Shown here: positions 4,200 to 53,913 of the stretch, in pieces
Position numbering within the stretch: position 1 is the first letter of the stretch
How the letters are laid out: each line of letters opens with the position of its first letter
Assembly: GCA_018714085.1 (NCBI GenBank)
Contig: DVNY01000176.1
Location: 388 to 64,387 of the forward strand
Direction: 5' to 3'
DNA: 64,000 nt
Source of the DNA: Candidatus Caccomonas pullistercoris
GTDB taxonomy: Bacteria; Bacteroidota; Bacteroidia; Bacteroidales; Bacteroidaceae
Program-made: the position numbers and the translations under genes
Notes under the pieces: generated by a model
What the model saw: the letters and a program-made list of their open reading frames with translations, nothing else
What the model was told of the DNA's origin: nothing
The model's database searches: none

Positions 4200-4291
4200 C
4201 AAAGATAGTGAAAGGCGAGAGACAAGACCGGAAAAAGCACGTTTTTCCGGAACTTGGCCGAGCCGCATCCTATCTTCGCAGGGCAAAGATA
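4200..4291 (-). repeat. 84-bp promoter-associated structured element, copy A1 (upstream of ECF sigma)
   Basis: CAAAGATAGTGAAAGGCGAGAG-hairpin-TTGGCCGAGCCGCATCCTATCTT; CAAAGATA at 4200 and 4284; similar to copies at 5484 and 9653. Confidence 0.9.
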
Positions 4292-4345
4292 TATAATTGT
4301 GTGGAATTTTCCAAAAGGTCGGCGTTTTTTTCGTCTTGGTGGGGC

Positions 4346-4400
4346 GAAAAACTGTCGCAGCGACTGTTTTTGCAGATCGCCGGACAGGATTTACAGTCAG
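4346..4400. repeat. Degenerate member of the 21-bp-period palindromic repeat family
   Basis: GAAAAACTGTCGCAGCGACTG resembles GAAAAACGGTCGCAGTGACAG at 59070; GACAGGATTTACAG is shared with 44706. Confidence 0.55.
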
Positions 4401-4410
4401 TTAGAGGGTT

Positions 4411-5457
4411 TTACGTGGTCGACGTCTTGAGTAGGGGCAAGTAGGCTTCGACGGCTTTTTCGACTGTGGCGATAGCGCTCTCCATGGGCCACGGAAGGCG
4501 GCCGCCCGACGCATTGGCGTGGCCGCCGCCGTTGAAGAACTCAGTCGCCATCTTGTTGCAGGGGAAGTTGCCCACCGAGCGCAGCGAGACGCGGATGAGG
4601 TCTGTCTCAGTATCTTCGCGGAGCGAGATGCTGAGTTTGTTGCCCCTGACTTGGAGGGGGAGGTTGACAAAGCCCTCGGCGTCGCCGCGGATGTAGTGGA
4701 AACGATCTAAGTCGCTGCGTGTCAATGTGAAGAGACTGGCCCGGCCGTCAGCGAGGAAGCGCAGTTTCTCAAAAAGCACGTAACCCATGAGGCGAATCCG
4801 GCTTTCGGTGTAGTTGTTGAATACGTTGCGGTAGAGCTGGTCTTTGTCGATGCCTTTGGTGAGCAAGAGGCTGATGATGGTGTATATCTCCGGGTTGTTC
4901 GAGTTGTATGTGAACCCGCCCGTATCAGTCATCATGCCAGTGTAGATGGCGGCTGCGGCATCGTGGGATATGGCGTCGAAACCACCCAGCTGTTCGATGA
5001 GGCGGAAGATGATTTCACACGTCGAACTGCATTCGGGATGCGAGATGGTGAGTGAAGTGAAGCTGCTGTCGGGGTCAAGGTGGTGGTCGATGATGACTTT
5101 TTTCGCTTTGGCGCGTGCGATGTCCTCGCCCATTCCTTCAAGGCGGGAAAGTGCGTTGAAGTCGAGGCAGAAGATGAGGTCGGCTTCATGAATGAGGTGT
5201 GAGGACAGTTCGTTTTGTTTGTCGAATAGGACCGCCATCCCGGCGCCGGGCATCGAACGAAGAAAGTCGGGGAACGCATTGGGCATGACGATGTTCGTCG
5301 TTTTTCTCAGCCCGCGTAAATAGCAGGTCCATCCGATGGAGGCGCCCAATGCGTCGCCGTCGGGACTGCGGTGGGCACACACGACGATGCGGCGTGCCTC
5401 TTTGATGAGTTGAAGGAGTGTGAATAATTCTTTATTGGTGAGTAGCGGTGTCAGCAT
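4411..5457 (-). CDS. nrnA: DHH/DHHA1 family phosphoesterase (NrnA-like oligoribonuclease/PAP phosphatase)
   Basis: HRSPDGDALG, IDHH, TGMMTDTG and GGGHANASG motifs. Confidence 0.9.
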   Translation of the reverse strand: MLTPLLTNKELFTLLQLIKEARRIVVCAHRSPDGDALGASIGWTCYLRGLRKTTNIVMPNAFPDFLRSMPGAGMAVLFDKQNELSSHLIHEADLIFCLDFNALSRLEGMGEDIARAKAKKVIIDHHLDPDSSFTSLTISHPECSSTCEIIFRLIEQLGGFDAISHDAAAAIYTGMMTDTGGFTYNSNNPEIYTIISLLLTKGIDKDQLYRNVFNNYTESRIRLMGYVLFEKLRFLADGRASLFTLTRSDLDRFHYIRGDAEGFVNLPLQVRGNKLSISLREDTETDLIRVSLRSVGNFPCNKMATEFFNGGGHANASGGRLPWPMESAIATVEKAVEAYLPLLKTSTT

Positions 5458-5483
5458 GTTGAGACAGGAAAATCAATGAAGTG

Positions 5484-5576
5484 CAAAGATAGTGAAAGGC
5501 GAGAGCCGAAGCAAGGGAATGCCCGCTTTCTTCTTGATTTGGCCGAGCCGCATCTTGTGTTCGCGTAGCACAGATG
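5484..5576 (-). repeat. 85-bp promoter-associated structured element, copy A2 (upstream of DHH gene)
   Basis: CAAAGATAGTGAAAGGCGAGAG...TTGGCCGAGCCGCATCTTGTGTT; degenerate second box CACAGATG at 5569. Confidence 0.88.
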
Positions 5577-5765
5577 CGCGGAAGCTGGTTCGAAAAGTGA
5601 GGAAGGCTGTTTCTTTTGCGTTCTGGACGGGTAAAAATGCCTATAAAAGGTTATATGACGTGGGTTAATCTGACAAGATTTTTTACATCTTAAATAATTA
5701 TATCCATGAGGCAGATGCTGTGTGCAAATGCTTTCCTTCCGGCAATCGTGAGTAGTTTACGGTTT

Positions 5766-6866
5766 CTATAAAATGTTGGTAAATAATTCTTTAACGCAAA
5801 TCTCTTCTTTCTCTCGCAGTATGTTGAAAGTTTGGAAGTCAACTTCATTAAATAGACTATCCAGCGATCCGTCGTAGATGCGTTGTCGCAAATTGTGTCT
5901 CTCTAATAGGTCTGTTATTCGGCTATTCATTCCTTTTATTGAACCCTTTACGGGAAACGTAAGGAAAGGGCGGTTGAAATGGAGGCAGAAAACGGTACCA
6001 TGGAAGGAGTTGGTGATGACGTAGGCTGCACCGTCCAAAAGTCCCAGCCATTCTTCGACAGTGGGGTAAAGTTTTGGAAATTCGTCCGTACGGCCTTGAC
6101 TTGCCACGTAGCGTACCGGCAAGTGGTGCGCGTGGGCGAAAGCGTGAATGTCGGCGACGCTTACGTCTGTTTCGTTACCCAGCAGGTAGAGGAGGAGATA
6201 AGGTTCGTCTTTTCTGGGACTGACCTCAATCTCCCTGTATGTAGCAGCAGGGAGCAGGAGTGTCGGATCGGGTTGGAGTGATGCTTCGGGATGCCCCAAC
6301 TTGCGGAGGAGTTCGATGCCCGATCGCTCTCTTGAACTGAGGAAATCGAACCTTTCGAGGTAGGAGCGCGCCGTGTCTTCGAGTTTGGCCGACGGTTGAA
6401 GGCTTCCGAACGACGGCGCGAAGGCGATGCGCTTTGTGTGGGGGGAGCCAAACTGCAAGAAAAACATAGGGTCGAGGTTTGCCCACACCTGATCGCTCCC
6501 ACAGACGTAAGCGTCAGCTTCCGGAGGTGTACTTCTTAGCTGGGCTGCTGTGAAAGTGCAGGATGTCGATGCGATATGTTTACGCCTGAACTCGTCGAAA
6601 TGGCGAGGATGTTTCCGGGCTTCCTCCCGCTCAATCCTGTTCAGGCGTTTCCACATTTTTGCCTGTTGTCTGTAAGATGGTCTGACGGCATATAAAATGT
6701 GGGATTTAAGCCGTTGGATGAGCGGGCGCTTTGTGGACGACGACAGGTATTTGATGAGGAATGCGTCATGTCCCATTTGGCGCAAGAAACGGAGCAATGC
6801 GTAACATTGCAGCAGCTGTCCGTAATTTTCTTGACTTTCCCAGTAAGTGAGTGTGCCTATTTTCAT
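5766..6866 (-). CDS. Polysaccharide pyruvyl transferase family protein
   Basis: NYGQLLQCYAL, CGSDQVW, SSRE, DPTLLL and TNSFHGTVF motifs. Confidence 0.9.
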   Translation of the reverse strand: MKIGTLTYWESQENYGQLLQCYALLRFLRQMGHDAFLIKYLSSSTKRPLIQRLKSHILYAVRPSYRQQAKMWKRLNRIEREEARKHPRHFDEFRRKHIASTSCTFTAAQLRSTPPEADAYVCGSDQVWANLDPMFFLQFGSPHTKRIAFAPSFGSLQPSAKLEDTARSYLERFDFLSSRERSGIELLRKLGHPEASLQPDPTLLLPAATYREIEVSPRKDEPYLLLYLLGNETDVSVADIHAFAHAHHLPVRYVASQGRTDEFPKLYPTVEEWLGLLDGAAYVITNSFHGTVFCLHFNRPFLTFPVKGSIKGMNSRITDLLERHNLRQRIYDGSLDSLFNEVDFQTFNILREKEEICVKELFTNIL

Positions 6867-6881
6867 ATTCAGAACAAGTCT

Positions 6882-8075
6882 TTATTTCTTCCATGCCCGT
6901 AACCGTCTCATGAGGCCAACCGGCAAGTGGAGCAGGCGTTTCCACCGTCTTGCGAGCAGGCGGCATTGGTAGACGGTCTCAACTCTTCTCATGAACTGCA
7001 CGCCGTGTAGGCGTTTGTAAAGACTACGTTCAAAAGACGGGTGGGACGAATGGAACAGCGAGGGATTGTACCGGGCAATATCGCTGAAAGGAGTTGACGT
7101 AAGTTGCATTGTACCAGAGATTTCAGCGACCCAGCGAGCGCCTTTCCCCGTATTGACCATGAGGGCGCACATCCCTTTGTTGTCGTCCAGTTCAGGATGC
7201 GTCTGTTCGAGTCCCCAGTAATCGCCAAGGGTCAGGTCGCTTCCGCTTTTCAGGTGTTTGGCCGGACAGGCGTCACAACTGGGACGGAGATACAGGTCCA
7301 TGAGGAAACCGCGCATGAATGTGTTGCGGCTGCCGGGCTCGCTGACGCGTAGCTCGTCGCCCGAGGGCGTTTTTACGGTATAGGTGAAACTGTAACTTTT
7401 CCATCCGGTCGATTTGTCGCGGAAACTGATCGACGTGATGGCCGAAGTGCTTTCAAAGCCGCAACGGTGTTTCAGTTCAGCGTTCAAGTAGTCCCGCCAC
7501 ACGCTCGGGCTTGGCACGCCGTGGCAGATAATGTCGACGAGCAGGAGGTTTTCGTACGTTTTTCGCAAGAAAAGCCTGAGGCCGGCAATCTGGCAGGGCG
7601 TACCAGAAAACAGTACGGTGCGGCCTTCTTTGAGGAATTTTTCGGCTTGTACGTAACTGTCGCCGATGCGGCTTTGCACGTATTTCGAACAGCGGAAGGG
7701 CGTGAGTTTTTCCGAAGTGTCGGCCCAATCGTGCACCACTTCCCATTGTTTGTCGAAGCGGGCACCGAACACAACGCCGCCTTGGCGGACGACTTCTTCG
7801 GACAGAGCGGAGAAAATGCCGCCCGACGAACTCTTCAGACGTATGGCGTCTTCGCGGTTCGTGGCAGCGTATGCGGCTTTGGGCTCGCGCTTTTCTGCTT
7901 GATTGATGACGGGACAGACCTTTTCGCAGAGCCCGCAATCGATGCACAACGCCGCGTCGGCTGTGGGGTAGAGGAATCCTTCGTTGTCCTCGTGCATACT
8001 GATGCAGCGTTTCGGGCAGCGCTGTACGCAGGCCCAACAGCCTACGCAATCTTCTTTCCTCGTGATTTCTATCAT
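6882..8075 (-). CDS. Coenzyme F420 hydrogenase/dehydrogenase beta-subunit-like Fe-S protein (polysaccharide-locus type)
   Basis: Two N-terminal CxxCxxCxxxCP ferredoxin motifs, SSSGG, SKYVQS, GTPCQIAG, ICHGVPS, RPSCxxC, SDLTLGDYWG. Confidence 0.9.
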   Translation of the reverse strand: MIEITRKEDCVGCWACVQRCPKRCISMHEDNEGFLYPTADAALCIDCGLCEKVCPVINQAEKREPKAAYAATNREDAIRLKSSSGGIFSALSEEVVRQGGVVFGARFDKQWEVVHDWADTSEKLTPFRCSKYVQSRIGDSYVQAEKFLKEGRTVLFSGTPCQIAGLRLFLRKTYENLLLVDIICHGVPSPSVWRDYLNAELKHRCGFESTSAITSISFRDKSTGWKSYSFTYTVKTPSGDELRVSEPGSRNTFMRGFLMDLYLRPSCDACPAKHLKSGSDLTLGDYWGLEQTHPELDDNKGMCALMVNTGKGARWVAEISGTMQLTSTPFSDIARYNPSLFHSSHPSFERSLYKRLHGVQFMRRVETVYQCRLLARRWKRLLHLPVGLMRRLRAWKK

Positions 8076-9592
8076 GTGAGTTTGTGTTTGATTTTGAGTA
8101 GTGGTGCGGTCACCATGCTCCGTTCGTCCTTGTTCATGACGAAGAACCAGCAGCAGGGCAGGTAGACCAAGGTGAACGCCACAGCACCCGAGACGAACCA
8201 GAGGGGGCGTTCCAGGTCGATAAAACTGAGCGCGTAATAGCTGGCAGTGCCTACGGCCAACGGAGCGAGGCTCATCTTTCCGATTTCACGCCAGAAGCGG
8301 GGGATGTCCAAGCGTTGCTTCTTCTTGTAGTATATGTTCATCACGACGACCTGTCCGGCCGTCAGAGCCAAGGCGGTGGCTACGGCGCAGCCTATGCCGC
8401 CGTAGTGTTTGGCACCGTAGATGGAAAACACGAGACTGGCGAGGGCTATGATGACATAGGCGATGGAGCGGAATTTCATTTCGTTACGGGCTTGGAGCAC
8501 GCAGATGCCCACGTTTTGGATTAAGGGAACCGTCAGTGGGATAAAGAACAGCAGCGTGATCGGATAGGCGTCCTCGTAGCCCGGGCCGGCCCAAAGATGA
8601 ATGAAAGCCTTCCCGAAGACGATGAAAGCTGTCAGGATGTAGGCCATAATGATGTATTGCACGCGGCCTGTGCGGATGAATAGATCCGAAATCTCCCTGT
8701 CGCTGCTGTGGCGGCTGACCATTGACGTCACCCGAGGCAGAAATACGCTCGAAATGGCTGTCGAAAACATCATGTACATGTTTTGGAGCTGGATGGCCAC
8801 GGCATAGACCGCCACGACGGCCGTGCCACAGAAAATGCCCAAGACGAACTGCCCGGTGCTCCAATAGATGCGATCCATGACGGCGTTAAGGAAAATCCAA
8901 AAGGAGAAGATGGAAACCTCGCGCAGGAACTTCCAGTTGAAGCGGCCGTAGCGGACACGGATGGACAGGCGGTGGCGGCAATACCACCAATTCAGTGTCA
9001 GTGTCAGCACGTTGAACACCGTTGTCACGACGACCATCGTGATGGCGCGGTAGCCGTAGAGCAGGAAAATGACCATTACCAACGGGTTGAGCACGATGCG
9101 GACGATACTCACGATGCGCTGGAAGATGAAGTTCTCGTATGCCGTGATGATCGAGCCCCAGATGCTCATGGGAAAGGTGAACGCAAGGTTGAACGAGAGG
9201 AGCATCAACATGATGCGCACCTTCCGGACTTCCTCGGGCGTCATTGATTGTGAAAAGAGGCCGTCCGCATTGAAATAGAGGACCATGCCGAGTGCGAAGG
9301 CGATGACGCTGATCACGCCGTAAAGCACGAGGAACATGCCGAACATTTCCTGTTGTTCGCGTATTCGGCCTTCCGCGCGGAACTTGGCCGTGTAGCGGAT
9401 GACCGCATTGCCGAAGCCGAGGTCGAGCACGGTCAGGTAGGCAATCACAGAGGCGGCCAGGGCATAAAGGCCATATTCTGACTGCCCCATGATGCGGAGC
9501 ATGAAAGGGGTGTAGAGCAGGCCGATGGCTGCGTTTAGTCCGATGATGACGTATGAGAGGGCTGCTCCGGCTTTCAGTTGGTTGATAGGCAT
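8072..9592 (-). CDS. Wzx/MOP-superfamily oligosaccharide flippase
   Basis: Start reassigned to MPINQLKAG (ATG 9592); many hydrophobic helices; G-x-x-EYGLY and DLGFGNAVIRY; 4-nt overlap with the next gene. Confidence 0.9.
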   Translation of the reverse strand: MPINQLKAGAALSYVIIGLNAAIGLLYTPFMLRIMGQSEYGLYALAASVIAYLTVLDLGFGNAVIRYTAKFRAEGRIREQQEMFGMFLVLYGVISVIAFALGMVLYFNADGLFSQSMTPEEVRKVRIMLMLLSFNLAFTFPMSIWGSIITAYENFIFQRIVSIVRIVLNPLVMVIFLLYGYRAITMVVVTTVFNVLTLTLNWWYCRHRLSIRVRYGRFNWKFLREVSIFSFWIFLNAVMDRIYWSTGQFVLGIFCGTAVVAVYAVAIQLQNMYMMFSTAISSVFLPRVTSMVSRHSSDREISDLFIRTGRVQYIIMAYILTAFIVFGKAFIHLWAGPGYEDAYPITLLFFIPLTVPLIQNVGICVLQARNEMKFRSIAYVIIALASLVFSIYGAKHYGGIGCAVATALALTAGQVVVMNIYYKKKQRLDIPRFWREIGKMSLAPLAVGTASYYALSFIDLERPLWFVSGAVAFTLVYLPCCWFFVMNKDERSMVTAPLLKIKHKLT

Positions 9593-9652
9593 GTGCGTGG
9601 TTCTTGTGTGTGATGTGCAGCAGCTGTCCGGGCTGTGCGGAGTCCAACAGTG

Positions 9653-9750
9653 CAAAGATACGCAAAGGCGAGAGCCAAGACAAGGAAAAACTTGTTTTTC
9701 AGTGGGCTTGGCCGAGCCGCATTCTGTCTTCGTGAAACAAAGATACGCAA
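9653..9750 (-). repeat. 85-bp promoter-associated structured element, copy A3 (upstream of flippase)
   Basis: Same conserved blocks as A1/A2; bounded by a 13-bp direct repeat CAAAGATACGCAA at 9653 and 9738. Confidence 0.9.
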
Positions 9751-9827
9751 TACCGCCGAGTTGGCCAACAGGCGTACCTCTTTCACGGTCGTCCCGCTCG
9801 CGAAAAAGCCTGGCGATGCAGGGCCGG

Positions 9828-9905
9828 CGGTCAGCCGTCCCGGAATTACTGAAGGAGTGACAGAAAATCCTGTCACTGCGACGGAAAATCCGGTCAGCCA
9901 ACTTG
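9828..9905. repeat. 21-bp-period palindromic repeat
   Basis: AGTGACAG-AAAATC-CTGTCACT at 9856-9877; GAAAATCC(T/G)GTCA at 9863 and 9884; TCAGCCGTCCCG and TCAGCCAACTTG shared with 53967-53999. Confidence 0.75.
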
Positions 9906-10058
9906 TTCGTGCGTTTCTTCCTGCCTGTGTTTTACATAGGATGGTCAAATTCTTATGCACATCGTGCGGACGTCCTGCGTGGTCGAGTTTCTGCATCTTC
10001 CTGTGCTTGCGATGAACGCAGATTTATTTATGCCTGATAGGGCAGTGCGAATGATATG

Positions 10059-10095
10059 AAAAGATCCCTGCTCCGCTTCGCGGAACAGGGATCTT
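10059..10095 (-). terminator. Intrinsic terminator of the RND operon
   Basis: AAGATCCCTG.TCCGC-TTC-GCGGA.CAGGGATCTT hairpin with a minus-strand T run, 28 nt after the TolC stop. Confidence 0.75.
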
Positions 10096-10122
10096 GCGTG
10101 AAGGCCCGCTTGTGCGGGTTTG

Positions 10123-11445
10123 TCATTCGAGGTAGCTGGTGATTTTTCCGCTGATTTGGAGCAGCGAGATTTCACAGACTTTTGTGTCGTATTCGGCGAT
10201 CAGCAGTCGCTCTTCGGCGTCGAGCAGGCTGTTTTGCGCTTCGCGTATTTCGATACCGGCCAAATCGCCGAGCAGGAATCGTTCGCGGGCAATGAGGTGG
10301 TTTTCTCGGGCCACGGTCAGGTTTTCCCGTTCAAGGCTGAGCAGGCGCAGGTTGTTGCAATAGGCTTGCCAGAGGTCCGCAAGCCGTGCGCGGAGCGATA
10401 TTTCTAGGTCGTTGCGTTCCCATTCGGCGTTTTCGAGTGCCAATTGAGCGTTGCGGCGTTCGCGTTTTCGGTTGCCGTCGAACAGGTTGAAGCCGATGGT
10501 TGCGCCGAAGTTGAGGCCGAGGTTGCCGCGGCTCGACGTTGTCCCGATTCCGTAGCGGTTGTGCGTGTATCCGTAGCCTGCGTTGAGCGTGACGTACGGG
10601 TAGTCGCGCGAGCGGACGGCCTTCAGGTCGATGGCGGCTATGCGCGTGTTGTGGTCGGCGTTGAGCAGTTCGCTGTTGCTGCGCAGCATGCCCGCCAGCA
10701 AGGAGTCGTAGCTCAATTCAGTGTCGATGTGAATGACAGTGTCGGGCACGAAAATGTGGCGGTCAATTTGGTTGGACGACATCAGCTCGTTGAGCCGGAT
10801 GCGTGAAGTGGCCAGTGCTTCAAGTTGTTTGAGGCACTGCGAGCTGTCGGCGTTGAAGTCCACGCCGGCCTGACGGTAGTCGAGGCGGGCCGCGCTACCG
10901 ATGATGTATCGTTCTTCCACGATGCGCAGGCGCTCTTTCGAGAGTTGCACGGCGGCGAGCAGGTTCTTGTAGCGGATCTCTTGTTGGATCAGGTTGAAGT
11001 ATTCGGCCGTGAGGTTGGCAATGTAGTCCTCGATGGCAACGCGCGTGGCAATGCGGCTTTGGCTTTGCAGTTCGCGCAGGCGCTGCATGTTGGTCTGGAT
11101 CTTGAACCCGTCGAAGAGGGTCCAGTCGGCTGTGATGCCGGCAGTGAACGTGTGGTCGAGCACGTTGCGGTCGTGTGTGGTCAGGCCGGTGCCGCGTTCC
11201 TTGGTCTTCGTGTTGTCCAGTGCTCCTGAGTATCCGGCGCTGAGGCTCACTGTGGGCAGTGCGCCGGCGTTGGCCAGCGTGTTGTTGTTTGCGGCGGTCT
11301 GCTCATCGTTACGCACGATTTTGAGCGAGTAACTGTTTTGCAGGCCTTCTTGCAGCAGCTCGCGCAACGAGTAGTTCTGCGCCGGCGCGGTGGCAGGGAG
11401 CATCGCCGCCGTCAAGAGGGCAAGTAGGAATTTTATGTACTTCAT
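10123..11445 (-). CDS. TolC family outer-membrane efflux protein
   Basis: Signal peptide, OEP repeats (LPTVSLSAG, WTLFDGF, NLFDG); last gene of an MFP-RND-OMF operon. Confidence 0.92.
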   Translation of the reverse strand: MKYIKFLLALLTAAMLPATAPAQNYSLRELLQEGLQNSYSLKIVRNDEQTAANNNTLANAGALPTVSLSAGYSGALDNTKTKERGTGLTTHDRNVLDHTFTAGITADWTLFDGFKIQTNMQRLRELQSQSRIATRVAIEDYIANLTAEYFNLIQQEIRYKNLLAAVQLSKERLRIVEERYIIGSAARLDYRQAGVDFNADSSQCLKQLEALATSRIRLNELMSSNQIDRHIFVPDTVIHIDTELSYDSLLAGMLRSNSELLNADHNTRIAAIDLKAVRSRDYPYVTLNAGYGYTHNRYGIGTTSSRGNLGLNFGATIGFNLFDGNRKRERRNAQLALENAEWERNDLEISLRARLADLWQAYCNNLRLLSLERENLTVARENHLIARERFLLGDLAGIEIREAQNSLLDAEERLLIAEYDTKVCEISLLQISGKITSYLE

Positions 11446-14400
11446 TTTTTTGTCGTTTTAACGGCCTTCTTAGCCAAGTCGGTGGAGAGGTAACTGTAAA
11501 TGGCCGGGACGATGAACAGCGTCAGGAACGTCGAAATGAGCATTCCGCCGACAACTGCGATGCCCATGGAGATACGCCCGTTGGCTCCTTCGCCGTTGGC
11601 GAAAACAAGGGGCAGCAGACCAAGGATCGTGGCGGCGCTTGTCATCAGGATCGGGCGCAGTCGTTGTGCTGCGGCGTCGCGGATGGCCTGGCCTTTCGGC
11701 TCGCCGTTCTTCTGTTTCTGATTGGCAAACTCAACGATTAGGATGCCGTTCTTGGCCACAAGTCCGATGAGCATGATGATGCCGATCTGGCTGAAGATGT
11801 TCATCGTCTGGTCGCTGCAAGCCATGAAGATGAGTGCGCCGCAGATGGCGAGGGGAACGGTGAGCATGATGACGAACGGATCTTTGAAACTCTCGAATTG
11901 CGCAGCCAGAATGAGGTAAATCAAGACAAGTGCCAGCGTGAAGGCAAAGAGCAGGCTCGACGCGCTTTCGCTGAACTCTTTTGAATCGCCTGCCAAGGCC
12001 GTGCGGAACGAGTCGTCGAGCGTGGCTTTGGCTATTTTGTCCATTTCTTCGATACCTTGTCCGATGGTTTTTCCTTCGGCCAATCCCGCCGAAACAGTAG
12101 CCGAGACGAAACGGTTGTAGCGGTAGAGCTTTGGCGGCGCAATGCCTTCCACGAGTTCCACGAGGTTGTCCATCTGGACCATTGTGCCGTCGTCGTTGCG
12201 CACGTAGAGCGACTTCAAGTGCATGGGCTTGTTGCGCTGCTGGCGGTTGATTTCCCCGACGATTTCATACTGCTTTCCGTTCAGGTAAAGGTAGCCCATG
12301 CGCTGTCCGCTGAGGCCGTATTGAAGGGTCTCGGCGATGTCCTGCGTGCTGACGCCCATGAGGTTGGCTTTGTCACGGTTGATGTGTATTCGGATTTCGG
12401 GATTGCTGAATTTGAGATCGACGTCGGCCATCTGGAATGTCGGGTTCTCGTACACTTGCGCCATGAACTTCGGCAGCACTTCTTCGAGCTTTTCGATGTT
12501 GGTGGCTTGCAGTACGTATTGCACAGGCATCGAGCCGCGTCGGCCGCCGAATGTGGATTGCTGTTGCACGAAAGAGCGGGCGTCGGTCTTGCTCTTGATG
12601 GCTTGTGAGAGGCGTTCGGCCACTTCCATCTGCGTGTAGTCGCGTTCGCTCAGGTCTTTCAGGGTGATTTGTATGTTGCCCGAGCCGTCCGACACGCGGG
12701 CCGTAATGAAGTCGGCGTCGGGGACGATGGAGTCGGCCAGGCGGTTGATGCTCTCAGTGTAGTCGCGCATGTATTCATACGTCGATCCCTCGGGGCCGGT
12801 GGTGCGGATGGTGATGCTCGACCGGTCTTCGAGCGGGGCCATCTCGCTGGGTATTTTGTTCCACAGCCAGACGATGAGCCCAAGAGCGACGACCATGATA
12901 CCGATCGACCAGCTACGGTGGCGCAGGAAGAGGTCGAGGCCTTTTGCATACCAGTGGTTCATGCCCGCGAAGAAAGGTTCGGTCTTTCGATAGAACCAAC
13001 TCTGCTTGTCTCTGTGTATCAGTAACTTGGTGGCCAGCATAGGCGTGAACGTAAGGGCTGCGAAGGCTGATATGATCACAGAACCGGCGACGACGAAACT
13101 GAACTCACGGAAGAGGCGCCCTGTGGTGCCCTCCATGAACACAATGGGGAAGAACACGGACACGAGGGTGATGGTCGTCGAAACGACGGCAAAGAAAATT
13201 TCTTTTGAACCCTCAATGCCGGCCTCTTTGGGGGGCATTCCTTCCTCAATTTTGATGTAGATGTTCTCTGTCATAACGATGGCGTCGTCCACCACCAGTC
13301 CGACAGCCAGCACGATGGCCAGCATCGAAAGCACATTGATCGAGAATCCCGCGACATACATGACGAAGAAAGCGCCGATCAGTGAGACCGGAATAACGAT
13401 GCAGGGCACAAGTGTCACGCGCCAGTCGCGCAGGAAGAGGAAGATGATGATGATCACGAGCACGAAGGCTTCATAGACGGTGTCTTTGACTTCGTTGATC
13501 GAAGCGCGGATGAACTTTGTGTTGTCGAATCCATAGCTGTACTGGACATCAGACGGAAGGTCTTTCTTCATCTGTTCCATGCGTTGGTAGACCGCCTCGG
13601 CAATGTTGATGTGGTTGGCGCCCGGTTGTGGTATGACGACAACGCCTACCATGGGAACGCCGTTCATCTTCATGTAGCTTTTGAGGTCACGGGCGCTCAG
13701 TTCGGCACGTCCGATGTCGCTGAAACGGATGATGCGTCCGTCAACTTCCTTGATAACCAGGTTGTTGAATTCTTCGGTTGTGTGCATCTGTCCTAACGTT
13801 CGGATTGTCAGTTCGACCGTGTTGCCCTCGATGCTTCCTGAGGGCAGTTCGACGTTTTCACGGTCGAGGGCTTGTTTCACGTCAAGTGGGGTGATGCCGT
13901 ATCCGGACATACGGACCGGATCGAGCCAGAGGCGCATACAATAGCGTTTCTCGCCCCAAATCGAGACGCTGCTGACTTCGGGGATGGTTTGCAGCTGTTC
14001 CTTGACAGTGAGGTCCGCTATCTCGCTGAGTTCCAACAGTGAACGCTTGTCGCTCTGGATGGCGACCATCAGGATGGGTTGGGCGTCAGCGTCAGCCTTA
14101 GACACCGTCGGGGGGTCACAGTCGCGCGGCAAGTTGCGTTGGGCGCGCGACACCTTGTCACGGACGTCGTTGGCCGCTGTTTCGAGGTCTACGGAGAGCT
14201 CGAATTCCACAGTGATGCGGCTTTGTCCTTGCTGGCTCACGCTGGTCAGTGAGCGGATGCCGGGAATGCCGTTGATGTTCTGTTCGAGCGGTTCGGTGAT
14301 TTGGTTTTCAATCACGTCGGCATTGGCTCCCGGATAGGAGCATGTGACGGAGATGATGGGGTTGTCGACCGAGGGGTACTCCCTGACGCCGAGGCTCAAA

Positions 14401-14486
14401 TAGCCGATGGCGCCGAAGAGCAGGATGATTAGGGTCAACACGGTCGCCAGGACGGGGCGCCGGATGCTTAGTTCGGATATGTTCAT
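11442..14486 (-). CDS. RND efflux transporter permease (AcrB/AcrD/AcrF family)
   Basis: 1014 aa; SIRRPVLA, GLVVDDAIV, KNGILIVEFA, RLRPILMT. Confidence 0.96.
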   Translation of the reverse strand: MNISELSIRRPVLATVLTLIILLFGAIGYLSLGVREYPSVDNPIISVTCSYPGANADVIENQITEPLEQNINGIPGIRSLTSVSQQGQSRITVEFELSVDLETAANDVRDKVSRAQRNLPRDCDPPTVSKADADAQPILMVAIQSDKRSLLELSEIADLTVKEQLQTIPEVSSVSIWGEKRYCMRLWLDPVRMSGYGITPLDVKQALDRENVELPSGSIEGNTVELTIRTLGQMHTTEEFNNLVIKEVDGRIIRFSDIGRAELSARDLKSYMKMNGVPMVGVVVIPQPGANHINIAEAVYQRMEQMKKDLPSDVQYSYGFDNTKFIRASINEVKDTVYEAFVLVIIIIFLFLRDWRVTLVPCIVIPVSLIGAFFVMYVAGFSINVLSMLAIVLAVGLVVDDAIVMTENIYIKIEEGMPPKEAGIEGSKEIFFAVVSTTITLVSVFFPIVFMEGTTGRLFREFSFVVAGSVIISAFAALTFTPMLATKLLIHRDKQSWFYRKTEPFFAGMNHWYAKGLDLFLRHRSWSIGIMVVALGLIVWLWNKIPSEMAPLEDRSSITIRTTGPEGSTYEYMRDYTESINRLADSIVPDADFITARVSDGSGNIQITLKDLSERDYTQMEVAERLSQAIKSKTDARSFVQQQSTFGGRRGSMPVQYVLQATNIEKLEEVLPKFMAQVYENPTFQMADVDLKFSNPEIRIHINRDKANLMGVSTQDIAETLQYGLSGQRMGYLYLNGKQYEIVGEINRQQRNKPMHLKSLYVRNDDGTMVQMDNLVELVEGIAPPKLYRYNRFVSATVSAGLAEGKTIGQGIEEMDKIAKATLDDSFRTALAGDSKEFSESASSLLFAFTLALVLIYLILAAQFESFKDPFVIMLTVPLAICGALIFMACSDQTMNIFSQIGIIMLIGLVAKNGILIVEFANQKQKNGEPKGQAIRDAAAQRLRPILMTSAATILGLLPLVFANGEGANGRISMGIAVVGGMLISTFLTLFIVPAIYSYLSTDLAKKAVKTTKK

Positions 14487-14504
14487 ACGTCGTGGCTTTC
14501 AGGG

Positions 14505-15581
14505 TTAATCAACGCTGTCCAGCGTGACGCGCTGGCCGGTGCGCAGCTGCATCGTTCCGCTGACAATGACCGTATCTCCGGGTTCTATCCCTTTGAGTAC
14601 CTGTACTTTCGATTCGGTGCGGAGGCCTTTGATGATTTTGGCGGGCTGAGCCACGCCTCCTTTGTAGAGGAACACTTTGTCTACGCCCATTTCTGACACG
14701 ATTGCTTCGCTCGGAACTGCCAAAGCGTTCTTATATTCTTGTGCGTTGAGCGAGACGTTGACGAAGCGTCCCGGCATGAGTTTGCCGTCGCTGTTGGCGT
14801 AGAGCGCGCGGATGGTGTAAGTGTGGGTCTCCTGGTCTACGCGAGAGTCCGTCGCGTAGATTTTGGCGGCCAGGGTGTTCATTTGCCCTTCAACCGTGAA
14901 GTGAAGGGTGGCTCCCGGTTTGAGCACGCCTGCATATCGTTCAGGGACAGCAAATTCCAGTTTCAAGGGCTTGATCTTGGTCAGTGTGGCGACGATGGTG
15001 CTCGGTGAGGCATAGGCACCGGTGCTGACCTGACGCAGACCGATGATTCCGTCGAAAGGAGCACGGAGTTCCGTTTGGGCGATGTTGGCTTTGATTTGGT
15101 CGATTTCCGCGCGCAGCATGGCCAGGTTGGTTTGGGCTTCCTGCAAGGCTTCGCGGCTGACGGCTTCTTTGGCCAACAGGGCGTTTTGGCGGAATACACG
15201 GTCGCTGGCCAGCCGTAACTGCGATTCGAGGCGGCGCAACTCAGCTTGCAGCGGGGCGTCGTTCACTTTGGCAAGGAGCTGTCCTTCATGCACGGTCGCT
15301 CCTTCCTTGAAGTGTATGCCTGTGATTTTACCCGACGTCTCGAACGAGAGTTGCACCTCTTCGTCCGGCAACAGGTTTCCGCTGACTGAAAGGCCGTCTG
15401 TGAGGGTTTGACGTTTGACGGTGACAGCCCTTACGTTCAGAATGTTACTCTTTTTTTCTTTCTTTGTTTCCTCGTTGGCGGACAGCTCTTTGTTCTCGTG
15501 CGGCACGAATGTGTGGATGCCTAATCCTGTCAGACCGACCACGATCACTCCGACTATTCCCCATTTGATGTATTTGTTCAT
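14505..15581 (-). CDS. RND efflux periplasmic adaptor (MFP) subunit
   Basis: N-terminal membrane anchor, SGKITGIHFKEG, RAPFDGIIG, LMPGRFV. Confidence 0.94.
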   Translation of the reverse strand: MNKYIKWGIVGVIVVGLTGLGIHTFVPHENKELSANEETKKEKKSNILNVRAVTVKRQTLTDGLSVSGNLLPDEEVQLSFETSGKITGIHFKEGATVHEGQLLAKVNDAPLQAELRRLESQLRLASDRVFRQNALLAKEAVSREALQEAQTNLAMLRAEIDQIKANIAQTELRAPFDGIIGLRQVSTGAYASPSTIVATLTKIKPLKLEFAVPERYAGVLKPGATLHFTVEGQMNTLAAKIYATDSRVDQETHTYTIRALYANSDGKLMPGRFVNVSLNAQEYKNALAVPSEAIVSEMGVDKVFLYKGGVAQPAKIIKGLRTESKVQVLKGIEPGDTVIVSGTMQLRTGQRVTLDSVD

Positions 15582-15900
15582 ACGGATTTTGATTAAGTTT
15601 TACCAATTTAGACGTAAAAGTATAAAAAGGATTAATAGGTGATGCACTTTAAATGCTCAAAATTGCTGAAAAAAATGTAAGAAATACGGAATGGCTTGCA
15701 GGGCAGCCCCTTATGTGCGACGCTTCTCTTTTTATGTCCCGCGTTGGAGCAGGAAAATGGGGGACACTGTCCGTTGAAAATGAGGGTGATTGAGGGAGTA
15801 GGCCGTGGGCTCATGTGGGCATGATGGGACATAACGATAATCGCGGTTGGGCTTGCAGTTTGGGCGCCATGTTATCCGGTGGTTGTCGCCCGCCTGCATC

Positions 15901-15949
15901 GAAATCCTGTCAGCCGGACAGGAATTTCTGTCCGGCTGACAGAAATTTC
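15901..15949. repeat. 21-bp-period palindromic repeat
   Basis: 15-bp perfect arms CTGTCAGCCGGACAG-GAATTT-CTGTCCGGCTGACAG (15907-15942). Confidence 0.8.
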
Positions 15950-16066: not shown

Positions 16067-16264
16067 GCGCTTTCCGTTCGTTTGCACTATTTTTTCAGAA
16101 GTATAGGCTGCACTCGGGAAAGCCCTAGTGAAAATCCTTCGGTTTTTCCCGTGCTTTCCGCTCGTTTGCACTATCTTTTCAGAAGTATAGGCTGCACTCG
16201 GGAAAGCCCTTGTGAAAATCCTTCGGTTTTTCCCGCGCTTTCCGCTCGTTTGCACTATCTTTGC
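16067..16264 (+). repeat. Tandem array (about 2.3 units, period 84 bp) of the promoter-associated element, subfamily B
   Basis: Units start at 16067, 16151 and 16235 (G[CT]GCTTTCCG[TC]TCGTTTGCACTAT); last unit ends in TATCTTTG (16256-16263). Confidence 0.93.
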
Positions 16265-16283
16265 CCGCGTTTTCGGTAAAAAG

Positions 16284-47147: not shown

Positions 47148-48872
47148 CTACTTGGCGAGCAGCGTGCCGGCGAGCGTGAGGGTGTTGACTTCGCGCTTGT
47201 CGGTGCGGGGAGTGGTGTAGTAGCTGAGGTCGAAGTTTTCGACCACGAGGCACGCTCGGCCGTTGCGGCTGGTCAGCACGCGGCTGGGCGTGGTGGTCGG
47301 GAGCGTGTCCCAACCGCGCAGTTCGTCGAGCGCGACGTCGAAAAGTAGCGACTTTCCGGTTTCGCCGGGCACCTTGCCCGTCAGGTTGAAGCAGACGGTG
47401 TCGCGGCGCAGTTCGTCGGGCGTGAAAGCCTGTGTGTAGTAGAAGTCTCTCAGCCGGGCCATGCTGTCGGGAAGGACGACGGTGGAGGTCGACACGAAGT
47501 TGCCTCTGAACGTGACGAATGCGGTTTCGTAGCGCGGGTCGACAACGGCGGGGACCACGTCGCCCTTGATGAACGCCGCGACGCTCTCGGGGCCGTAGGT
47601 GTCGAGGAGGTAGGCGAGCTTGTCGTTGACGTAGCGCGCCGTCTCGTCGGTCATGGCGTCGAGAGTGTGGCCGTAGGCTTCACGGTCCATGGGGCAGGCG
47701 GCTACGCCGCTGGCTTCGAGGGCGCGTTTCACTTCGCGCGTCAGCACGCGCTGCGTCGTTTGGACGATGCTCCACGGCCCCACGGAGGCGAGGAATACGA
47801 GCACGACGGGCGAGAGCAGCAACCATTTGATGCGGCGGGAGCGGGTGAAGATGAGGTAGAAGCAGGCGCCGTAGCACCAAAGGTTGAAGAGGAGCAGATA
47901 AAGGCGGCGGACGGTGAGGCCGTAGTCGTAGAGCCGCCGGCCTATGCCGACGCTCATCAGCACCAGCAGGGGCAGCATGAAAGCCGGGCCGTAGCGCGCC
48001 ACGAAGTCGTCGCGCTCCCAGCCGTCTGTGCGGCGCAGCGGCAGGAAAAGGTAGACCGCAAGCACCACGCCGCCCATCAGTGCGCTCACCAGCCCCGACA
48101 CCCATCCGTCGGGCAGGTTCCACGTCAGCAGGATGTAGGCCGCGTAGGCGTAGAGCACCACTGCGTAGGCGCAGAGCAGGGGATTGAGCACGTAGCGCAC
48201 GGCGTAGCGCGTCAGGGCGCCCACGGCATGGTGCTCCTGCCCCAACGCGTCGGGCGCGGGCATCCGGGCGAGGAACACGAGCGGCGCGCAGCAGACGAGG
48301 AAGATGGTCAGGCAGACCTCGGCGGCGTGCCCGCCCAGCGTGATGCCGAACAGTGGGTCGAGCGAGGCCAGCAGGAGCACGACGCCGCCGAAGAGAATGA
48401 GCCCGGTGAGCCCGGCGGCGAGGGCAGAGAAGACGAGACGCGAACAGAACCGGCGGAAGGCCAGTTCGCTCCGGCTGCGCAGATAGGGCAGGCCGGGCAG
48501 CAGCACGACGAGCAGGGCCACGGTGGCGGCGTTGGCCGTCGTGGTGGCGAGCGTCGTCCTCGTCTGGGTGTAGAGGTAGGCCGCATAGCCCAGCCAAAGG
48601 AGCTGCGTGGCGAGCGTGACGCTGTACGGGAGGCGTTTCGACCGCCGCGTCTCGCCCCACGTGGCGGTGACAGTGGCCAGCAGGGCGGCGGTGGCTAAAT
48701 AGTAGAGCACGACACCCTCTTCATATCCCGACCCGCTTTTCATGCCGAGTTGGTAGAGGATGGTTTTCAGGGTGAGCAGCAGGATGAACGCTGCGGGGAG
48801 AGGAAATCGGCGCAGGGTGCGGACAATGCCAAGCAGCCATCCGCGCATCAGGGTGGTGAGGGCGTTTTTCAT
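47148..48872 (-). CDS. DUF4153-like multi-pass membrane protein
   Basis: Start at MKNALTT (48872); RRFP, PLLCAYAVVLYAY...WNLPDGWVS, RRLYDYGLTVRRLY, GPW motifs; many TM segments. Confidence 0.8.
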   Translation of the reverse strand: MKNALTTLMRGWLLGIVRTLRRFPLPAAFILLLTLKTILYQLGMKSGSGYEEGVVLYYLATAALLATVTATWGETRRSKRLPYSVTLATQLLWLGYAAYLYTQTRTTLATTTANAATVALLVVLLPGLPYLRSRSELAFRRFCSRLVFSALAAGLTGLILFGGVVLLLASLDPLFGITLGGHAAEVCLTIFLVCCAPLVFLARMPAPDALGQEHHAVGALTRYAVRYVLNPLLCAYAVVLYAYAAYILLTWNLPDGWVSGLVSALMGGVVLAVYLFLPLRRTDGWERDDFVARYGPAFMLPLLVLMSVGIGRRLYDYGLTVRRLYLLLFNLWCYGACFYLIFTRSRRIKWLLLSPVVLVFLASVGPWSIVQTTQRVLTREVKRALEASGVAACPMDREAYGHTLDAMTDETARYVNDKLAYLLDTYGPESVAAFIKGDVVPAVVDPRYETAFVTFRGNFVSTSTVVLPDSMARLRDFYYTQAFTPDELRRDTVCFNLTGKVPGETGKSLLFDVALDELRGWDTLPTTTPSRVLTSRNGRACLVVENFDLSYYTTPRTDKREVNTLTLAGTLLAK

Positions 48873-48912: not shown

Positions 48913-49074
48913 GCAAAGATAGTGCAAACGAGCGGAAAGCAGGTCGAAAAGCCGCAGGTTTTTCGCCGGTCTTTCCCGAGTGCCGCCTGTCTTGGCGCAG
49001 CAAAGTGTGCAAACGAGTGGAAAGCAGGTCGAAAAGCCGTAGGTTTTTCGCCAGTCTTTCCCGAGTGCCGCCTG
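48913..49074 (-). repeat. Tandem pair (period 85 bp) of the promoter-associated element, subfamily B
   Basis: GTGCAAACGAG(C/T)GGAAAGCAGGTCGAAAAGCCG...CTTTCCCGAGTGCCGCCTG at 48922 and 49007; CAAAGATA at 48914. Confidence 0.92.
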
Positions 49075-49321
49075 GAATGTAGGAAATGGGCTGCGTCATT
49101 TATGATGTCCGGCGCCGGGACGGTACAACCTGTCTCCGCGTTGCGTGCGATGCTGTCGGGCGTTTGCGGCGGTGAATGCGCCGCCCGTGGCGGCGTTCCG
49201 TGTGTTTGCGGCAGCCTTCCGAGCGTCACAAGTGGCGCCCCTACGCTTGCGTTTGTGCGGTCAACGATGGTGGAGCGATATTCCGTATGTTCGCGGCGGC
49301 CTTTCAGACTTTCCGCCCTTG

Positions 49322-49436
49322 GTGACAAAGTTTTCGGACGCCGTGACAAAGTTCATTTCACATCGTGAAATTTGCAATTCACGTCGTGAAATATAAAAGT
49401 CACGACGTGAAATATATAATTCACGACGTGAAACAG
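49322..49436. repeat. 21-bp tandem array with four TTCACGWCGTGAA-like palindromes
   Basis: GTGAAA at 49365, 49386, 49407, 49428; GTGACAAAGTT at 49322 and 49343. Confidence 0.88.
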
Positions 49437-49533: not shown

Positions 49534-49559
49534 TCCCGCCCTTTCCGGCCGGCCAGACG

Positions 49560-52203: not shown

Positions 52204-52226
52204 TTTTCCGATGGCTATGTGTGTTT

Positions 52227-52817
52227 TTAGAATTCTACTTTCGGGGCTTGTTCGGCGCCGTCTGTGGCTTCGAACTTGTCGCGTTTCTCAAAGCCGAAGA
52301 GGCCGGCGAAGATGTTGCCGGGGAAGCGGCGGATGCTGAGGTTGTACTCTTGCACTGCCTCGTTGAAGCGGAGGCGGCTTTCGTTGATTCGGTTTTCCGT
52401 ACCTTCGAGTTGGGCTTGCAGTTCAGAGAAGTTCTCGTTCGCGCGGAGCTGGGGGTAGTTCTCGGTGATGCGCATCAGCCGGCCGAGGGCAGCAGAGAGT
52501 TCGCCTTGCGCTTTTTGGAATTCGGCGAAACGTTCGGGGGTGAGGTTGTCGGCACTGACTGTCACCTGTGTGGCTTTGGCGCGCGCTTCGACTACGCCTT
52601 CGAGGGTTTCCTTTTCGTGTGCGGCGTAACCCTTGACGGTGTTCACGAGGTTCGGGATGAGGTCGCTGCGGCGCTGGTACTGCGACTCGACGCCGGCCCA
52701 GGCCGTCGTGACGGCTTCGTCGTTAGCTACCATGCCGTTATACTGTATGGTCACCCATCCTGCCAGGAGGATGACGATTGCTCCAATGACGAAGAGCGTG
52801 ATGGTCGATTTTTTCAT
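52227..52817 (-). CDS. lemA: LemA family protein
   Basis: QYQRRSDLIPNLVNTVKGYAAHE, ENYPQLRANENF..LQAQLEGTENRI. Confidence 0.95.
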   Translation of the reverse strand: MKKSTITLFVIGAIVILLAGWVTIQYNGMVANDEAVTTAWAGVESQYQRRSDLIPNLVNTVKGYAAHEKETLEGVVEARAKATQVTVSADNLTPERFAEFQKAQGELSAALGRLMRITENYPQLRANENFSELQAQLEGTENRINESRLRFNEAVQEYNLSIRRFPGNIFAGLFGFEKRDKFEATDGAEQAPKVEF

Positions 52818-52864
52818 ATTGCTGAACGTTTAGGTTGGATATTTATAAGGTCTTTTTATGTAGT

Positions 52865-53800
52865 TCAGAAACTGCCTCCGGCACCACCGCCGCCGAATGA
52901 TCCACCTCCGAACGAGCCTCCGCTGATGCCGCCGAAGCCCCCGCCGTGATGGCCAAAGCCCCCGGCTCTCATGCCGCCGAGGAAGAAGATTGGAGGCAGG
53001 ATGTCGCCACCGTGGAAGCGGTTGTTCGGGTCTTCGTCGCGGAGTTCGGCGTAATGGCAGTGGTCGCACTGGTACGTCACCTGCCGCACGTAGCGACCGT
53101 CGGGGCGACGCACCATCCGGGCGTGGGTGGCGTGGAGTGTGTGATGCCTGCATCGCGGGCAGCGTTGGCCACCAGCCCGTCCGCGACGGTGTGCGATGCT
53201 CAGCGCAAAGAGCAGGAAGAGGAAGCCCAGGGCGATGGCGAGTCCGATGCCTTTGCCCTCGCTCTCGTCGTCGCCGAGTTCGGCGCGCAGCGAGGGGTCG
53301 CCGTAGATGTAGCCGCTGAGGGCGCGTACTGAGGCGTAGACCGCCATGTCCCAGTCGCCGCTTTTGAGGTAAGGAACCATAACGCGGTTTTCGACGCGCT
53401 TACAGATGGCGTCGGGCAAGGTGCCTTCGAGGCCGCGGCCAGTGAGGATGAAAAACTTGCGGTCTTCGGTGCTGATGACGATGACAAGTCCGGAGTTCTG
53501 CTCACGGCTGCCCACGCCGTACTTCTTCGCCAGTGCCATGCCGAAGTCGTACGGGTCGCCGCCTTCGATGCGGCGCACGATGGCCACGACGGTCTCGACG
53601 CCTTTCTCACGTTCGAGGCGATAGAGGAGGGCGTCGGTTGAGTCGACCGCCACGGGCGACATGAGGCCGTCGGGGTTACAGACGTAGCGCCGGGCGTCGT
53701 CAAGATGAACCATGGGCAACGTCTCGGGTGTCCATGCGGCGCGAGCGGCTATGGCGGTCAGACCGAGGATCAGGAGTAGGAGTAGGCGAAGTTTCTTCAT
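52865..53800 (-). CDS. TPM domain membrane protein with Zn-ribbon and Gly-rich tail
   Basis: Signal peptide from ATG 53800; TGRGLEGTLPD; TM helix; CPRC...CDHC; GGSFGGGSFGGGGAGGSF end. Confidence 0.88.
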   Translation of the reverse strand: MKKLRLLLLLILGLTAIAARAAWTPETLPMVHLDDARRYVCNPDGLMSPVAVDSTDALLYRLEREKGVETVVAIVRRIEGGDPYDFGMALAKKYGVGSREQNSGLVIVISTEDRKFFILTGRGLEGTLPDAICKRVENRVMVPYLKSGDWDMAVYASVRALSGYIYGDPSLRAELGDDESEGKGIGLAIALGFLFLLFALSIAHRRGRAGGQRCPRCRHHTLHATHARMVRRPDGRYVRQVTYQCDHCHYAELRDEDPNNRFHGGDILPPIFFLGGMRAGGFGHHGGGFGGISGGSFGGGSFGGGGAGGSF

Positions 53801-53828
53801 GCCTGCGTGAGGATTCTGTAACGTGGGA

Positions 53829-53913
53829 CAAAGATAGTGCAAACGAGCGGAATGGCGGGCGAAAAGCGGTAGGATTTTCGCACAGGCATTCCCGAGTGTC
53901 GCCTTGTCTTGTC
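53829..53913 (-). repeat. Single copy of the promoter-associated element, subfamily B (upstream of TPM gene)
   Basis: CAAAGATAGTGCAAACGAGCGGAATG...CATTCCCGAGTGTCGCCTTGTCTT. Confidence 0.88.

Follow-up and report, generated by a model that had tools for sequence, protein, structure and literature searches.

An 84–85-nt repeat, probably a mobile element, at the −7 promoter boxes of a gut Bacteroidaceae genome

The element and its loci in the window

The 64,000-nt stretch of DNA analyzed here (the window) is part of an assembly of Candidatus Caccomonas pullistercoris (G000; 2.15 Mb in 181 contigs, 59% G+C), and the sequencing runs that carry sequence of this genome are chicken-gut metagenomes. 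At six loci the window holds a repeated element with a unit period of 84–85 nt, placed directly ahead of a gene. TAnnTTTG is the −7 promoter box of the primary sigma factor in Bacteroidota, and every unit in the window, read in promoter orientation, has TATCTTTG as its 3' end. All six loci belong to one family with two subfamilies, A, with the layout ...GAAGATAGGATGCGGCTCGGCCAAG-(apical hairpin)-CTTGGCTCTCGCCTTTCACTATCTTTG, and B, with the layout ...AAGACAGGCGGCACTCGGGAAAG-(apical hairpin)-CTTTCCGCTCGTTTGCACTATCTTTG. An earlier reading made from the letters of the window only (the sequence-only reading) had reported six loci with this ending and period, ahead of unrelated genes and with 20–70 nt between box and ATG. 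The loci, the ending and the period are where it had placed them, the measured distances are 20–68 nt, and the genes are indeed unrelated, encoding an ECF (extracytoplasmic function) sigma factor, a DHH phosphoesterase, a flippase, a radical-SAM protein, a DUF4153 protein and a TPM-domain protein. The features are as follows:

3550-4131, minus strand: ECF sigma factor gene, downstream of copy A1, which supplies its predicted promoter box
4200..4283, minus strand: copy A1, 84 nt, with terminal box TATCTTTG (4200-4207, CAAAGATA on the plus strand)
4284..4291, minus strand: native −7 box of the sigma promoter, the target half-site at the left junction, moved 84 nt upstream
5484..5568, minus strand: copy A2, an A unit of 85-nt period ahead of the DHH phosphoesterase gene 4411-5457(-)
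9653..9737, minus strand: copy A3, 85 nt, ahead of the polysaccharide flippase gene 8072-9592(-), with the native box at 9738-9745
16068..16263, plus strand: radical-SAM locus with tandem B copies at 16097-16178 and 16181-16263
48914..49077, minus strand: tandem B pair (B3/B4) ahead of the DUF4153 gene 47148-48872(-), with a degenerate internal box, ACACTTTG
53829..53911, minus strand: copy B5 ahead of the TPM-domain gene 52865-53800(-)

At copy A2 the old box (5569-5576) has decayed to CATCTGTG, and the fold of the copy is lost (fold z-score ~0). The tandem B pair of the radical-SAM locus is preceded by a 3'-half remnant (16068-16095), and the final box of this array (16256-16263) lies 20 nt ahead of the ATG at 16284.

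The family is considerably larger than its six loci in the window. A hidden Markov model (HMM) built from 8 window copies matched 115 copies at 81 loci of G000 (49 single, 30 double and 2 triple; E-values 6e-21 to 1e-3), and a covariance model matched 111. Many of these loci are tandem arrays with the 84–85-nt period, and an additional 3'-half remnant lies upstream at many of them.

Short-read metagenome contigs from two independent chicken-gut studies stop at every element copy in window 3400-17400. Promoters that carry the element are thus systematic assembly break points, and copy numbers in metagenome-assembled genomes are probably underestimates.

Occupied and empty promoter boxes

Genes were called with a simple home-made codon-usage finder, which gave 85% coding sequence and missed some genes. 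All 77 loci with a scorable neighbour are oriented towards the gene downstream of them. From the terminal box to the predicted start codon the median distance is 28 nt (interquartile range 20–51), against 43 nt for native boxes. The sequence-only reading had proposed tabulating distance and orientation to start codons, and its picture of units facing the genes holds genome-wide. TAnnTTTG occurs 1044 times in G000, as 113 element-borne, 452 native promoter-like, 266 other intergenic and 213 intragenic sites, and none of the 81 element loci lies on any of the 213 intragenic sites. The element-borne box at 81 loci makes up ~15% of the recognisable promoter-type boxes of this genome. An exact TAnnTTTG is found 5–7 nt ahead of the 5' arm in 22 of 58 arrays, and a one-mismatch box in 10 more. 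Native boxes (n=451) are followed by C in 345 cases (76%) and preceded by G in 201 (45%); the base after the box does not differ between occupied and native sites (C in 82% vs 76%). Bacteroides promoters follow the spacing TTTG-N19-21-TAnnTTTG, in which the upstream motif is the −33 element. Subfamily A has CTTG 20 nt upstream of its box, the spacing of this −33 element, and subfamily B has no well-spaced −33.

The promoters of the window were compared with those of G057, the closest relative (a complete genome of 2.67 Mb with ~87% identity in syntenic DNA), and of L031, a locus from a more distant Prevotellamassilia. The sigma promoter carries an exact 84-nt insertion in the window relative to both. 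The empty sites read attacaTATCTTTG, followed by tcgcca in L031 or tcgcac in G057; in its wider context G057 reads ...acaattacaTATCTTTGtcgcacattaacc where the window reads ...acaattataTATCTTTG, then the 84 nt ending in TATCTTTG, then tcgcacattaacc, and L031 is empty at the same base. The flippase promoter is likewise empty in G057 (...ggtattccGTATCTTTGcacagttagact), where the native ccGTATCTTTG is followed by the same flank, cacagttagact, while in the window 85 nt are inserted after the box. At the DHH promoter L031 is empty, the window has one unit and G057 has two, and the displaced old promoter has decayed in the window. Empty orthologous sites had been named beforehand as a way to check mobility, and these three promoters (sigma, flippase and DHH) provide exact empty/filled comparisons.

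The remaining loci mostly differ in degree. The window has 2.3 units at the radical-SAM promoter, against one in G057, and no copy was present at 24 other congener loci, of which one (L129) held only 81 nt upstream. G057 has only the 3' half at the DUF4153 promoter, and at the TPM-domain promoter it has an orthologous copy in which the 5' arm has decayed and the 3' part is conserved. Eight further loci are mostly shared with G057, several of them one unit apart; of 14 loci compared in G000 and G057, 5 differ in array length, and at C94:8463 G000 has one unit more.

The copy number varies widely among relatives. The 24 other congeners hold 0, 1, 2, 3, 6, 8, 17 and up to 101 copies, and several of the congeners with zero copies are at least 93% complete. 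In a sample of the Bacteroidaceae the family was found in 89 of 150 genomes and 27 of 35 genera, with per-genome counts up to at least 30, whereas among 16 other families of the order 15 were without a match and the remaining one had a single weak hit (E about 1e-3). Neighbouring units of an array are each other's closest relatives in only 7 of 17 pairs, so the arrays grow by fresh insertion as well as by local duplication. Of 91 copies, 19 have a counterpart of at least 95% identity at another locus; a few of these may be one locus assembled on two contigs. Phage and plasmid collections yielded one unannotated Phocaeicola record and six unannotated virome fragments, pattern scans of viral contigs yielded no true copies, and a search of G000 for a longer autonomous element with the same ends returned only contig-edge fragments and the upstream 3' remnants. 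In the complete chromosome of G057, about half of the 88 copies lie in a quarter of its length (C1, ~1.27-1.93 Mb).

Judging from the exact empty sites in close relatives, the element is mobile. Our main reading, which we give a probability of about 0.8, is a family of non-autonomous mobile DNA elements, 84–85 nt long, that use the Bacteroidota −7 box, (G)TAnnTTTG(C), as their attachment site. The aligned promoters show integration in one orientation directly at or after a resident promoter box, by which the box ends up repeated. Each unit ends in its own box, usually TATCTTTG, leaving the sequence of the gene 3' of the box untouched and a box at the original distance, and the old box is pushed 84–85 nt upstream and then decays. 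Because insertion rebuilds the box at the end of the element, the family can spread without silencing genes, and because each insertion regenerates the target, further units can insert head-to-tail. Such insertions and local duplication together produce the tandem arrays. After insertion the host keeps only the 3' ~28 nt, i.e., the promoter part. A non-autonomous, promoter-targeting mobile cassette was one of two possibilities raised by the sequence-only reading, and it is supported by the exact empty sites, the range from 0 to ~110 copies among congeners, the independent insertions beside resident copies and the orientation at 77 of 77 loci.

Two other short repeats were seen near these loci. 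Upstream of B3/B4 (window 49357-49433) a 21-nt unit, TTCACGACGTGAAATATAAAA, is repeated 3.7 times in tandem, and each repeat holds the short palindrome CACGNCGTG. The array is partly conserved in G057 and may be an operator or an iteron-like protein-binding array. A second repeat family is a G+C-rich hairpin, GGGACGGCTGACAG...CTGTCAGCCGTCCC, which lies just 3' of genes and is terminator- or REP-like (REP, repetitive extragenic palindrome). It has 6 matches in the window where 1.5 are expected (9831-9841(-) and, with both arms, 53944-53977; weaker at 26868, 38970 and 44889), and the G057 chromosome contains many matches of 25–45 nt with 88–100% identity.

The hairpin and the route of movement

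The element body forms one long imperfect hairpin with an outer stem, a middle stem and a variable, A/T-rich apical stem. Across 26 diverse copies, 80.9% of the cells of this three-helix model pair, compared with 66.6% after shuffling (reached in 0 of 500 shuffles), and pairing falls to 38–53% when the partners are slid by 1–3 columns. Changes on both sides occur in 15 of 21 pairs, which agrees with the covarying inner stem already noticed in the letters of the window. Examples are GAAAA/TTTTC to GAGTT/AACTC in the apical stem, GGCCAAG/CTTGGC vs GGAAAG/CTTTCC in the middle stem, and AAGGTAG/CTACCTT, AAGTTA/TAACTT and AATATA/TATATT as variants of the outer stem AAGATAG/CTATCTT. The complementarity of AAGATAG and CTATCTT claimed earlier is real, but these sequences do not both form the ends, as the 5' arm lies 6–7 nt inside the unit. 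Likewise, the two conserved CGAG blocks had been described as simply unpaired; they face each other in the fold, where a tandem G.A pair is possible in the antisense strand and the sense strand has pyrimidine mismatches. The antisense (bottom) strand is the more stable in 72 of 91 copies (−27.4 vs −24.6 kcal/mol, p=1e-7), and with DNA parameters it folds better in 6 of 6 window copies. Consensus folding of large subfamily alignments returned no structure, and a listing of covariation over all pairs was too noisy.

The hairpin is not what the host keeps. In ten gene-proximal copies compared between G000 and their G057 orthologues, identity is 73% in the 5' arm, 80% in the apical part and 92% in the 3' arm and box, with 88% in the first 40 nt downstream. 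If the terminal box is the working −7 box, the kept 3' ~28 nt correspond to about −35 to −5 relative to the expected start. Since the 5' arm decays while the 3' 28 nt stay, the hairpin is not maintained in place. We infer that the 3' end of the element serves as the working promoter, and that selection on the hairpin acts at the copying step, the hairpin being of importance to mobility and not to the gene.

The enzyme that moves the element may be a tyrosine recombinase acting in trans, and not a transposase, although we would put this at slightly less than even odds. The left and inter-unit junctions read CTATCTTT-G(C/T)NNNNN-GAAGATAG, i.e., inverted arms of 8 nt each on the two sides of a spacer, which measures 7 nt in 31 of 51 copies and starts with GC in 18 and GT in 13 of them. 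This layout of arms and spacer is that of a tyrosine-recombinase core site, and it agrees with published features of IntDOT. A consensus for the CTnDOT core is GTANNTTTGC. The D and B core sites of IntDOT of CTnDOT end in TTTGC and are cleaved between T and G, and the 7-bp overlap consists of GC and a coupling sequence of 5 variable bp, with imperfect inverted repeats on both sides of the overlap (PMC2817482). IntDOT tolerates heterology, with one identical base next to the cut being sufficient, and its targets conserve only one half-site (PMC2817482). Given the bases that precede and follow native boxes in G000, the promoter box and such an integrase half-site are all but identical. At each of the three exactly matched promoters, the left spacer is of the element type and the seven bases to the right of the unit are the target's own, one of the two outcomes expected after heteroduplex resolution. 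The substrate could be either a tiny double-stranded circle, whose junction would read ...CACTATCTTT-GYNNNNN-GAAGATAGG..., or a folded single strand, as for integron attC and CTX-phage attP. All element-bearing genomes searched contain integrases of the Bacteroides type, with the exception of G005 (1 copy) and G018 (6 copies); G057 has 14 tyrosine recombinases that are candidates of this type. More tentatively still, the element could be a cargo-less unit that is nothing but an attachment (att) site on the −7 box, moved in trans by the integrases of resident conjugative or mobilisable elements, whose preference for core sites (...TTT-GC) would coincide with the promoter box. It may then move by way of a folded single strand, the form in which integron attC sites recombine, a route that would explain the inner stems and the strand asymmetry.

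Several points weigh against this explanation, some of them against the integrase and others against mobility or promoter use as such. The Bacteroides-type integrases occur in 27 of 29 congeners, copy-free ones included, and being near-universal in the genus their presence does not discriminate; co-occurrence with a tyrosine recombinase, one of the checks proposed from the sequence, thus says little for this class. Searches of element-bearing genomes did not identify the mobilising enzyme. IntDOT needs arm-type sites and accessory proteins over ~200 bp, for which an 85-bp unit has no obvious room, and a double-stranded circle of 85 bp would be very strained. About 15 of the 51 copies with an upstream box belong to a B subtype whose spacer is shorter by 4 nt (TCAT), which fits a 7-bp overlap only if the cleavage register is shifted by 2 nt, and the internal boxes of this subtype read TTTC or TTTT, only the gene-proximal box being TTTG. 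By itself, a double-strand core-site model also leaves the covariation of the inner stems and the strand asymmetry unexplained. The empty sites could come from precise deletion between two boxes, and the direction of change is ambiguous at C94:8463. Promoter activity is inferred from position and conservation, the RNA-library data being assembled contigs that break at repeats as DNA contigs do and have no readable start sites, and the gene calls behind the placement figures come from a crude finder.

An alternative is transposition by an HUH enzyme, where a Y1 or Y2 protein (IS200/IS605 TnpA, a REP-associated tyrosine transposase (RAYT) or an IS91-like enzyme) would move a single-stranded hairpin by cutting after TTTG and pasting it 3' of another TTTG, with no true target duplication. 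The unit does insert 3' of a fixed short sequence in which it also ends, its hairpin is strand-asymmetric, and RAYT-like genes of 200 aa occur in 6 of 14 high-copy and 0 of 15 low-copy congeners. However, these 6 of 29 congeners do not include G000, G004 or the complete G057, and the Y1 transposase domain (PF01797) was not found in these three genomes either (111, 101 and 88 copies, respectively). An IS200 Y1 enzyme was rejected, as no correlation was seen for it. A search for the IS91 Y2 domain found none in five high-copy genomes; it was also silent in 14 of 14 controls and is thus uninformative. Furthermore, none of five RAYT genes has an element within 2 kb, the unit forms a single composite hairpin instead of two subterminal ones, and the RAYT gene of G163 is flanked by a REPIN-like array of its own, which is unrelated to the element. 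The elements are no more biased in orientation than the genes themselves: a replication-strand bias was rejected, since GC skew follows the gene strand and orientation is 20:43 against a gene baseline of 279:464 (p=0.42), and the copies along the complete chromosome of G057 form no clean two-block pattern. We consider HUH transposition unlikely, and neither the REP/RAYT and IS200/605 enzymes nor the integron integrase that the sequence-only reading had named as possible movers turned up where they would be needed.

The RAYT-like HUH gene of G163 (2271-2891(-) in locus L120, C15:258500-263500; 206 aa, with the motifs NHVH ... WQ ... YIARNP) has arrays of a ~42-nt repeat in alternating orientation on both sides (AAACGCAAGCTCTAATGGGGGCGACGCGTCTCGCGTCGGG). 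The gene and its repeats are a REPIN-RAYT system of a Bacteroidaceae genome and have no relation to the promoter element.

Other enzymes were rejected as candidates. The integron-integrase model TIGR02249, with a cut-off of 265 bits, scored no higher than 82 bits in any of five high-copy genomes, G057 among them, and the same sub-threshold signal appeared in all 14 control genomes. The IS110/IS1111 domain PF01548 occurred in 0 of 5 high-copy genomes, and its control matched 6 known genomes, including B. thetaiotaomicron. In both G000 and G057 an element copy adjoins a gene for a XerD-like tyrosine recombinase of 323–368 aa across a divergent intergenic region (G000, copy C125:5455-5532 and gene 5632-6600(+); G057, C1:1988743-1989771), which we judged to be a housekeeping gene next to a copy by coincidence.

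The repeats could also have arisen with no dedicated mobility, through tandem duplication, slippage and ectopic gene conversion between box-sharing promoters with a palindromic upstream module. The unequal arrays at 5 of 14 loci, the near-identical neighbours in 7 of 17 pairs, the many upstream 3'-half remnants and an apparently variable crossover position in the box region (A3, C94:8463) would all fit this. At new loci, however, the sequence shared with the donor spans only 8–13 nt on each side. RecA-type conversion would need more than this, and the insertions at unrelated promoters are nevertheless base-exact. Near-identical copies are also found on different contigs. In addition, covariation keeps the hairpin among copies while orthologous copies lose it in place, which is the signature of selection at the copying step. 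We regard this explanation as very improbable.

Least plausible of all, to the point of being nearly negligible, is a structured RNA, i.e., the 5'-leader switch that the sequence-only reading had offered as its other possibility, a small RNA family, or a terminator or insulator of transcripts from the upstream box: the stems covary, a downstream unit would be transcribed in arrays or where the old box survives, and one RNA-library contig bridges copy A2, but the element lies upstream of the gene-proximal −7 box, its sense strand folds worse than the antisense strand, its 5' arm decays in orthologues (73% identity against 92% in the 3' 28 nt), the downstream genes are unrelated and congeners with 0–3 copies exist. 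Rfam had no match at the gathering score anywhere in the window and, even at E ≤ 10, only chance-level ones on two element regions, which settles an earlier caution that an entry might exist. The FopS small RNA family, which is in Rfam, was rejected as its architecture differs (PMC11697453).

The mobile family described above would be a concrete case of promoter movement in bacteria, a question left open by surveys of mobile promoters, and a selfish element that restores the very signal its insertion destroys and so escapes the cost that insertions usually carry. It is relevant to promoter prediction, the annotation of transcription starts and strain-level differences in expression in gut Bacteroidaceae. 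If the integrase explanation is true, the integrases of integrative and conjugative elements (ICEs) continuously rewrite promoter architecture genome-wide, with ~15% of boxes element-borne in some gut Bacteroidaceae. If the recombinase lead holds, the unit would also be a minimal, 85-bp substrate of a Bacteroides integrase, with a possible use in the study or engineering of site-specific integration at promoters of these bacteria, which are hard to engineer.

Comparison with known systems

The closest likeness in core-site layout is to CTnDOT, as the element junction and its (G)TAnnTTTG(C) targets have the same arrangement, the 15 of 51 copies with a shorter spacer apart. CTnDOT differs in being a 65-kb ICE with att sites of ~200 bp, arm-type sites and accessory proteins, whereas the element has 85 bp, no cargo, ~100 copies per genome and an imperfect palindrome with strand asymmetry, and its recombination is putative. 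Integron attC sites resemble the element in their imperfect hairpins with a better-folding bottom strand, an outer box that pairs, a spacer that stays unpaired and has conserved bases, and a variable apical part kept by compensatory change, and also in head-to-tail arrays and a double-stranded target with only one conserved box. The folded bottom strand, paired boxes, unpaired spacer and variable apex of attC were all found in the element, a likeness of form only. The element has no GTTRRRY/RYYYAAC boxes and no AAC/GTT core, its outer boxes being AAGATAG/CTATCTT; it carries no open reading frame as cargo, and its units are dispersed at 81 promoters instead of one platform.

REPs and REPINs, the repeats that go with RAYTs, are likewise extragenic hairpins that occur in abundance, are similar in size and are passed on within lineages, and single-strand folding is implied for them. 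They lie mostly at the 3' ends of genes, bear a GTAG or CGTC tag, often form inverted pairs and flank a single-copy RAYT gene (PMC3733652, PMC6006769). In contrast, the promoter element is promoter-proximal, one-way oriented and tandem, and RAYT is missing from most carriers. MITEs (miniature inverted-repeat transposable elements) derived from IS200/IS605 (PATE) differ from the element, which has one composite hairpin and hosts without PF01797 (G000, G004 and G057). Classical MITEs have terminal inverted repeats at their outermost ends, a target duplication of fixed length and a parent IS that shares their ends; the element has an inverted pair of 7–8 nt with the 5' arm 6–7 nt inside, and a repeated box of 8 nt, up to 13 nt at A3.

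Correia elements of Neisseria have 26-bp terminal inverted repeats, duplicate TA and carry promoters at their ends by chance of context; the target of the element is the promoter box itself, which insertion replaces like for like. To our knowledge, no element with this box-targeting and box-replacing logic has been described. No account of the element turned up in the literature searched, which covered repeats and insertions at the −7 box, REP/RAYT in Bacteroidetes and Prevotella repeats but few subscription journals, so a prior description is possible. With Correia elements and mobile promoters the element shares that it is a small non-autonomous repeat of ~100 or more copies per genome that places promoters ahead of unrelated genes. 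A survey of putative mobile promoters reported that repeats in promoter regions are common and their means of movement unknown (PMC3575422). Repeats of this sort may be contained in bulk catalogues of MITEs and putative mobile promoters, which do not describe the element or its target. In kind the element is one of the small non-autonomous promoter-bearing repeats, and what appears to be new is the use of the promoter box itself as an attachment site, which insertion regenerates.

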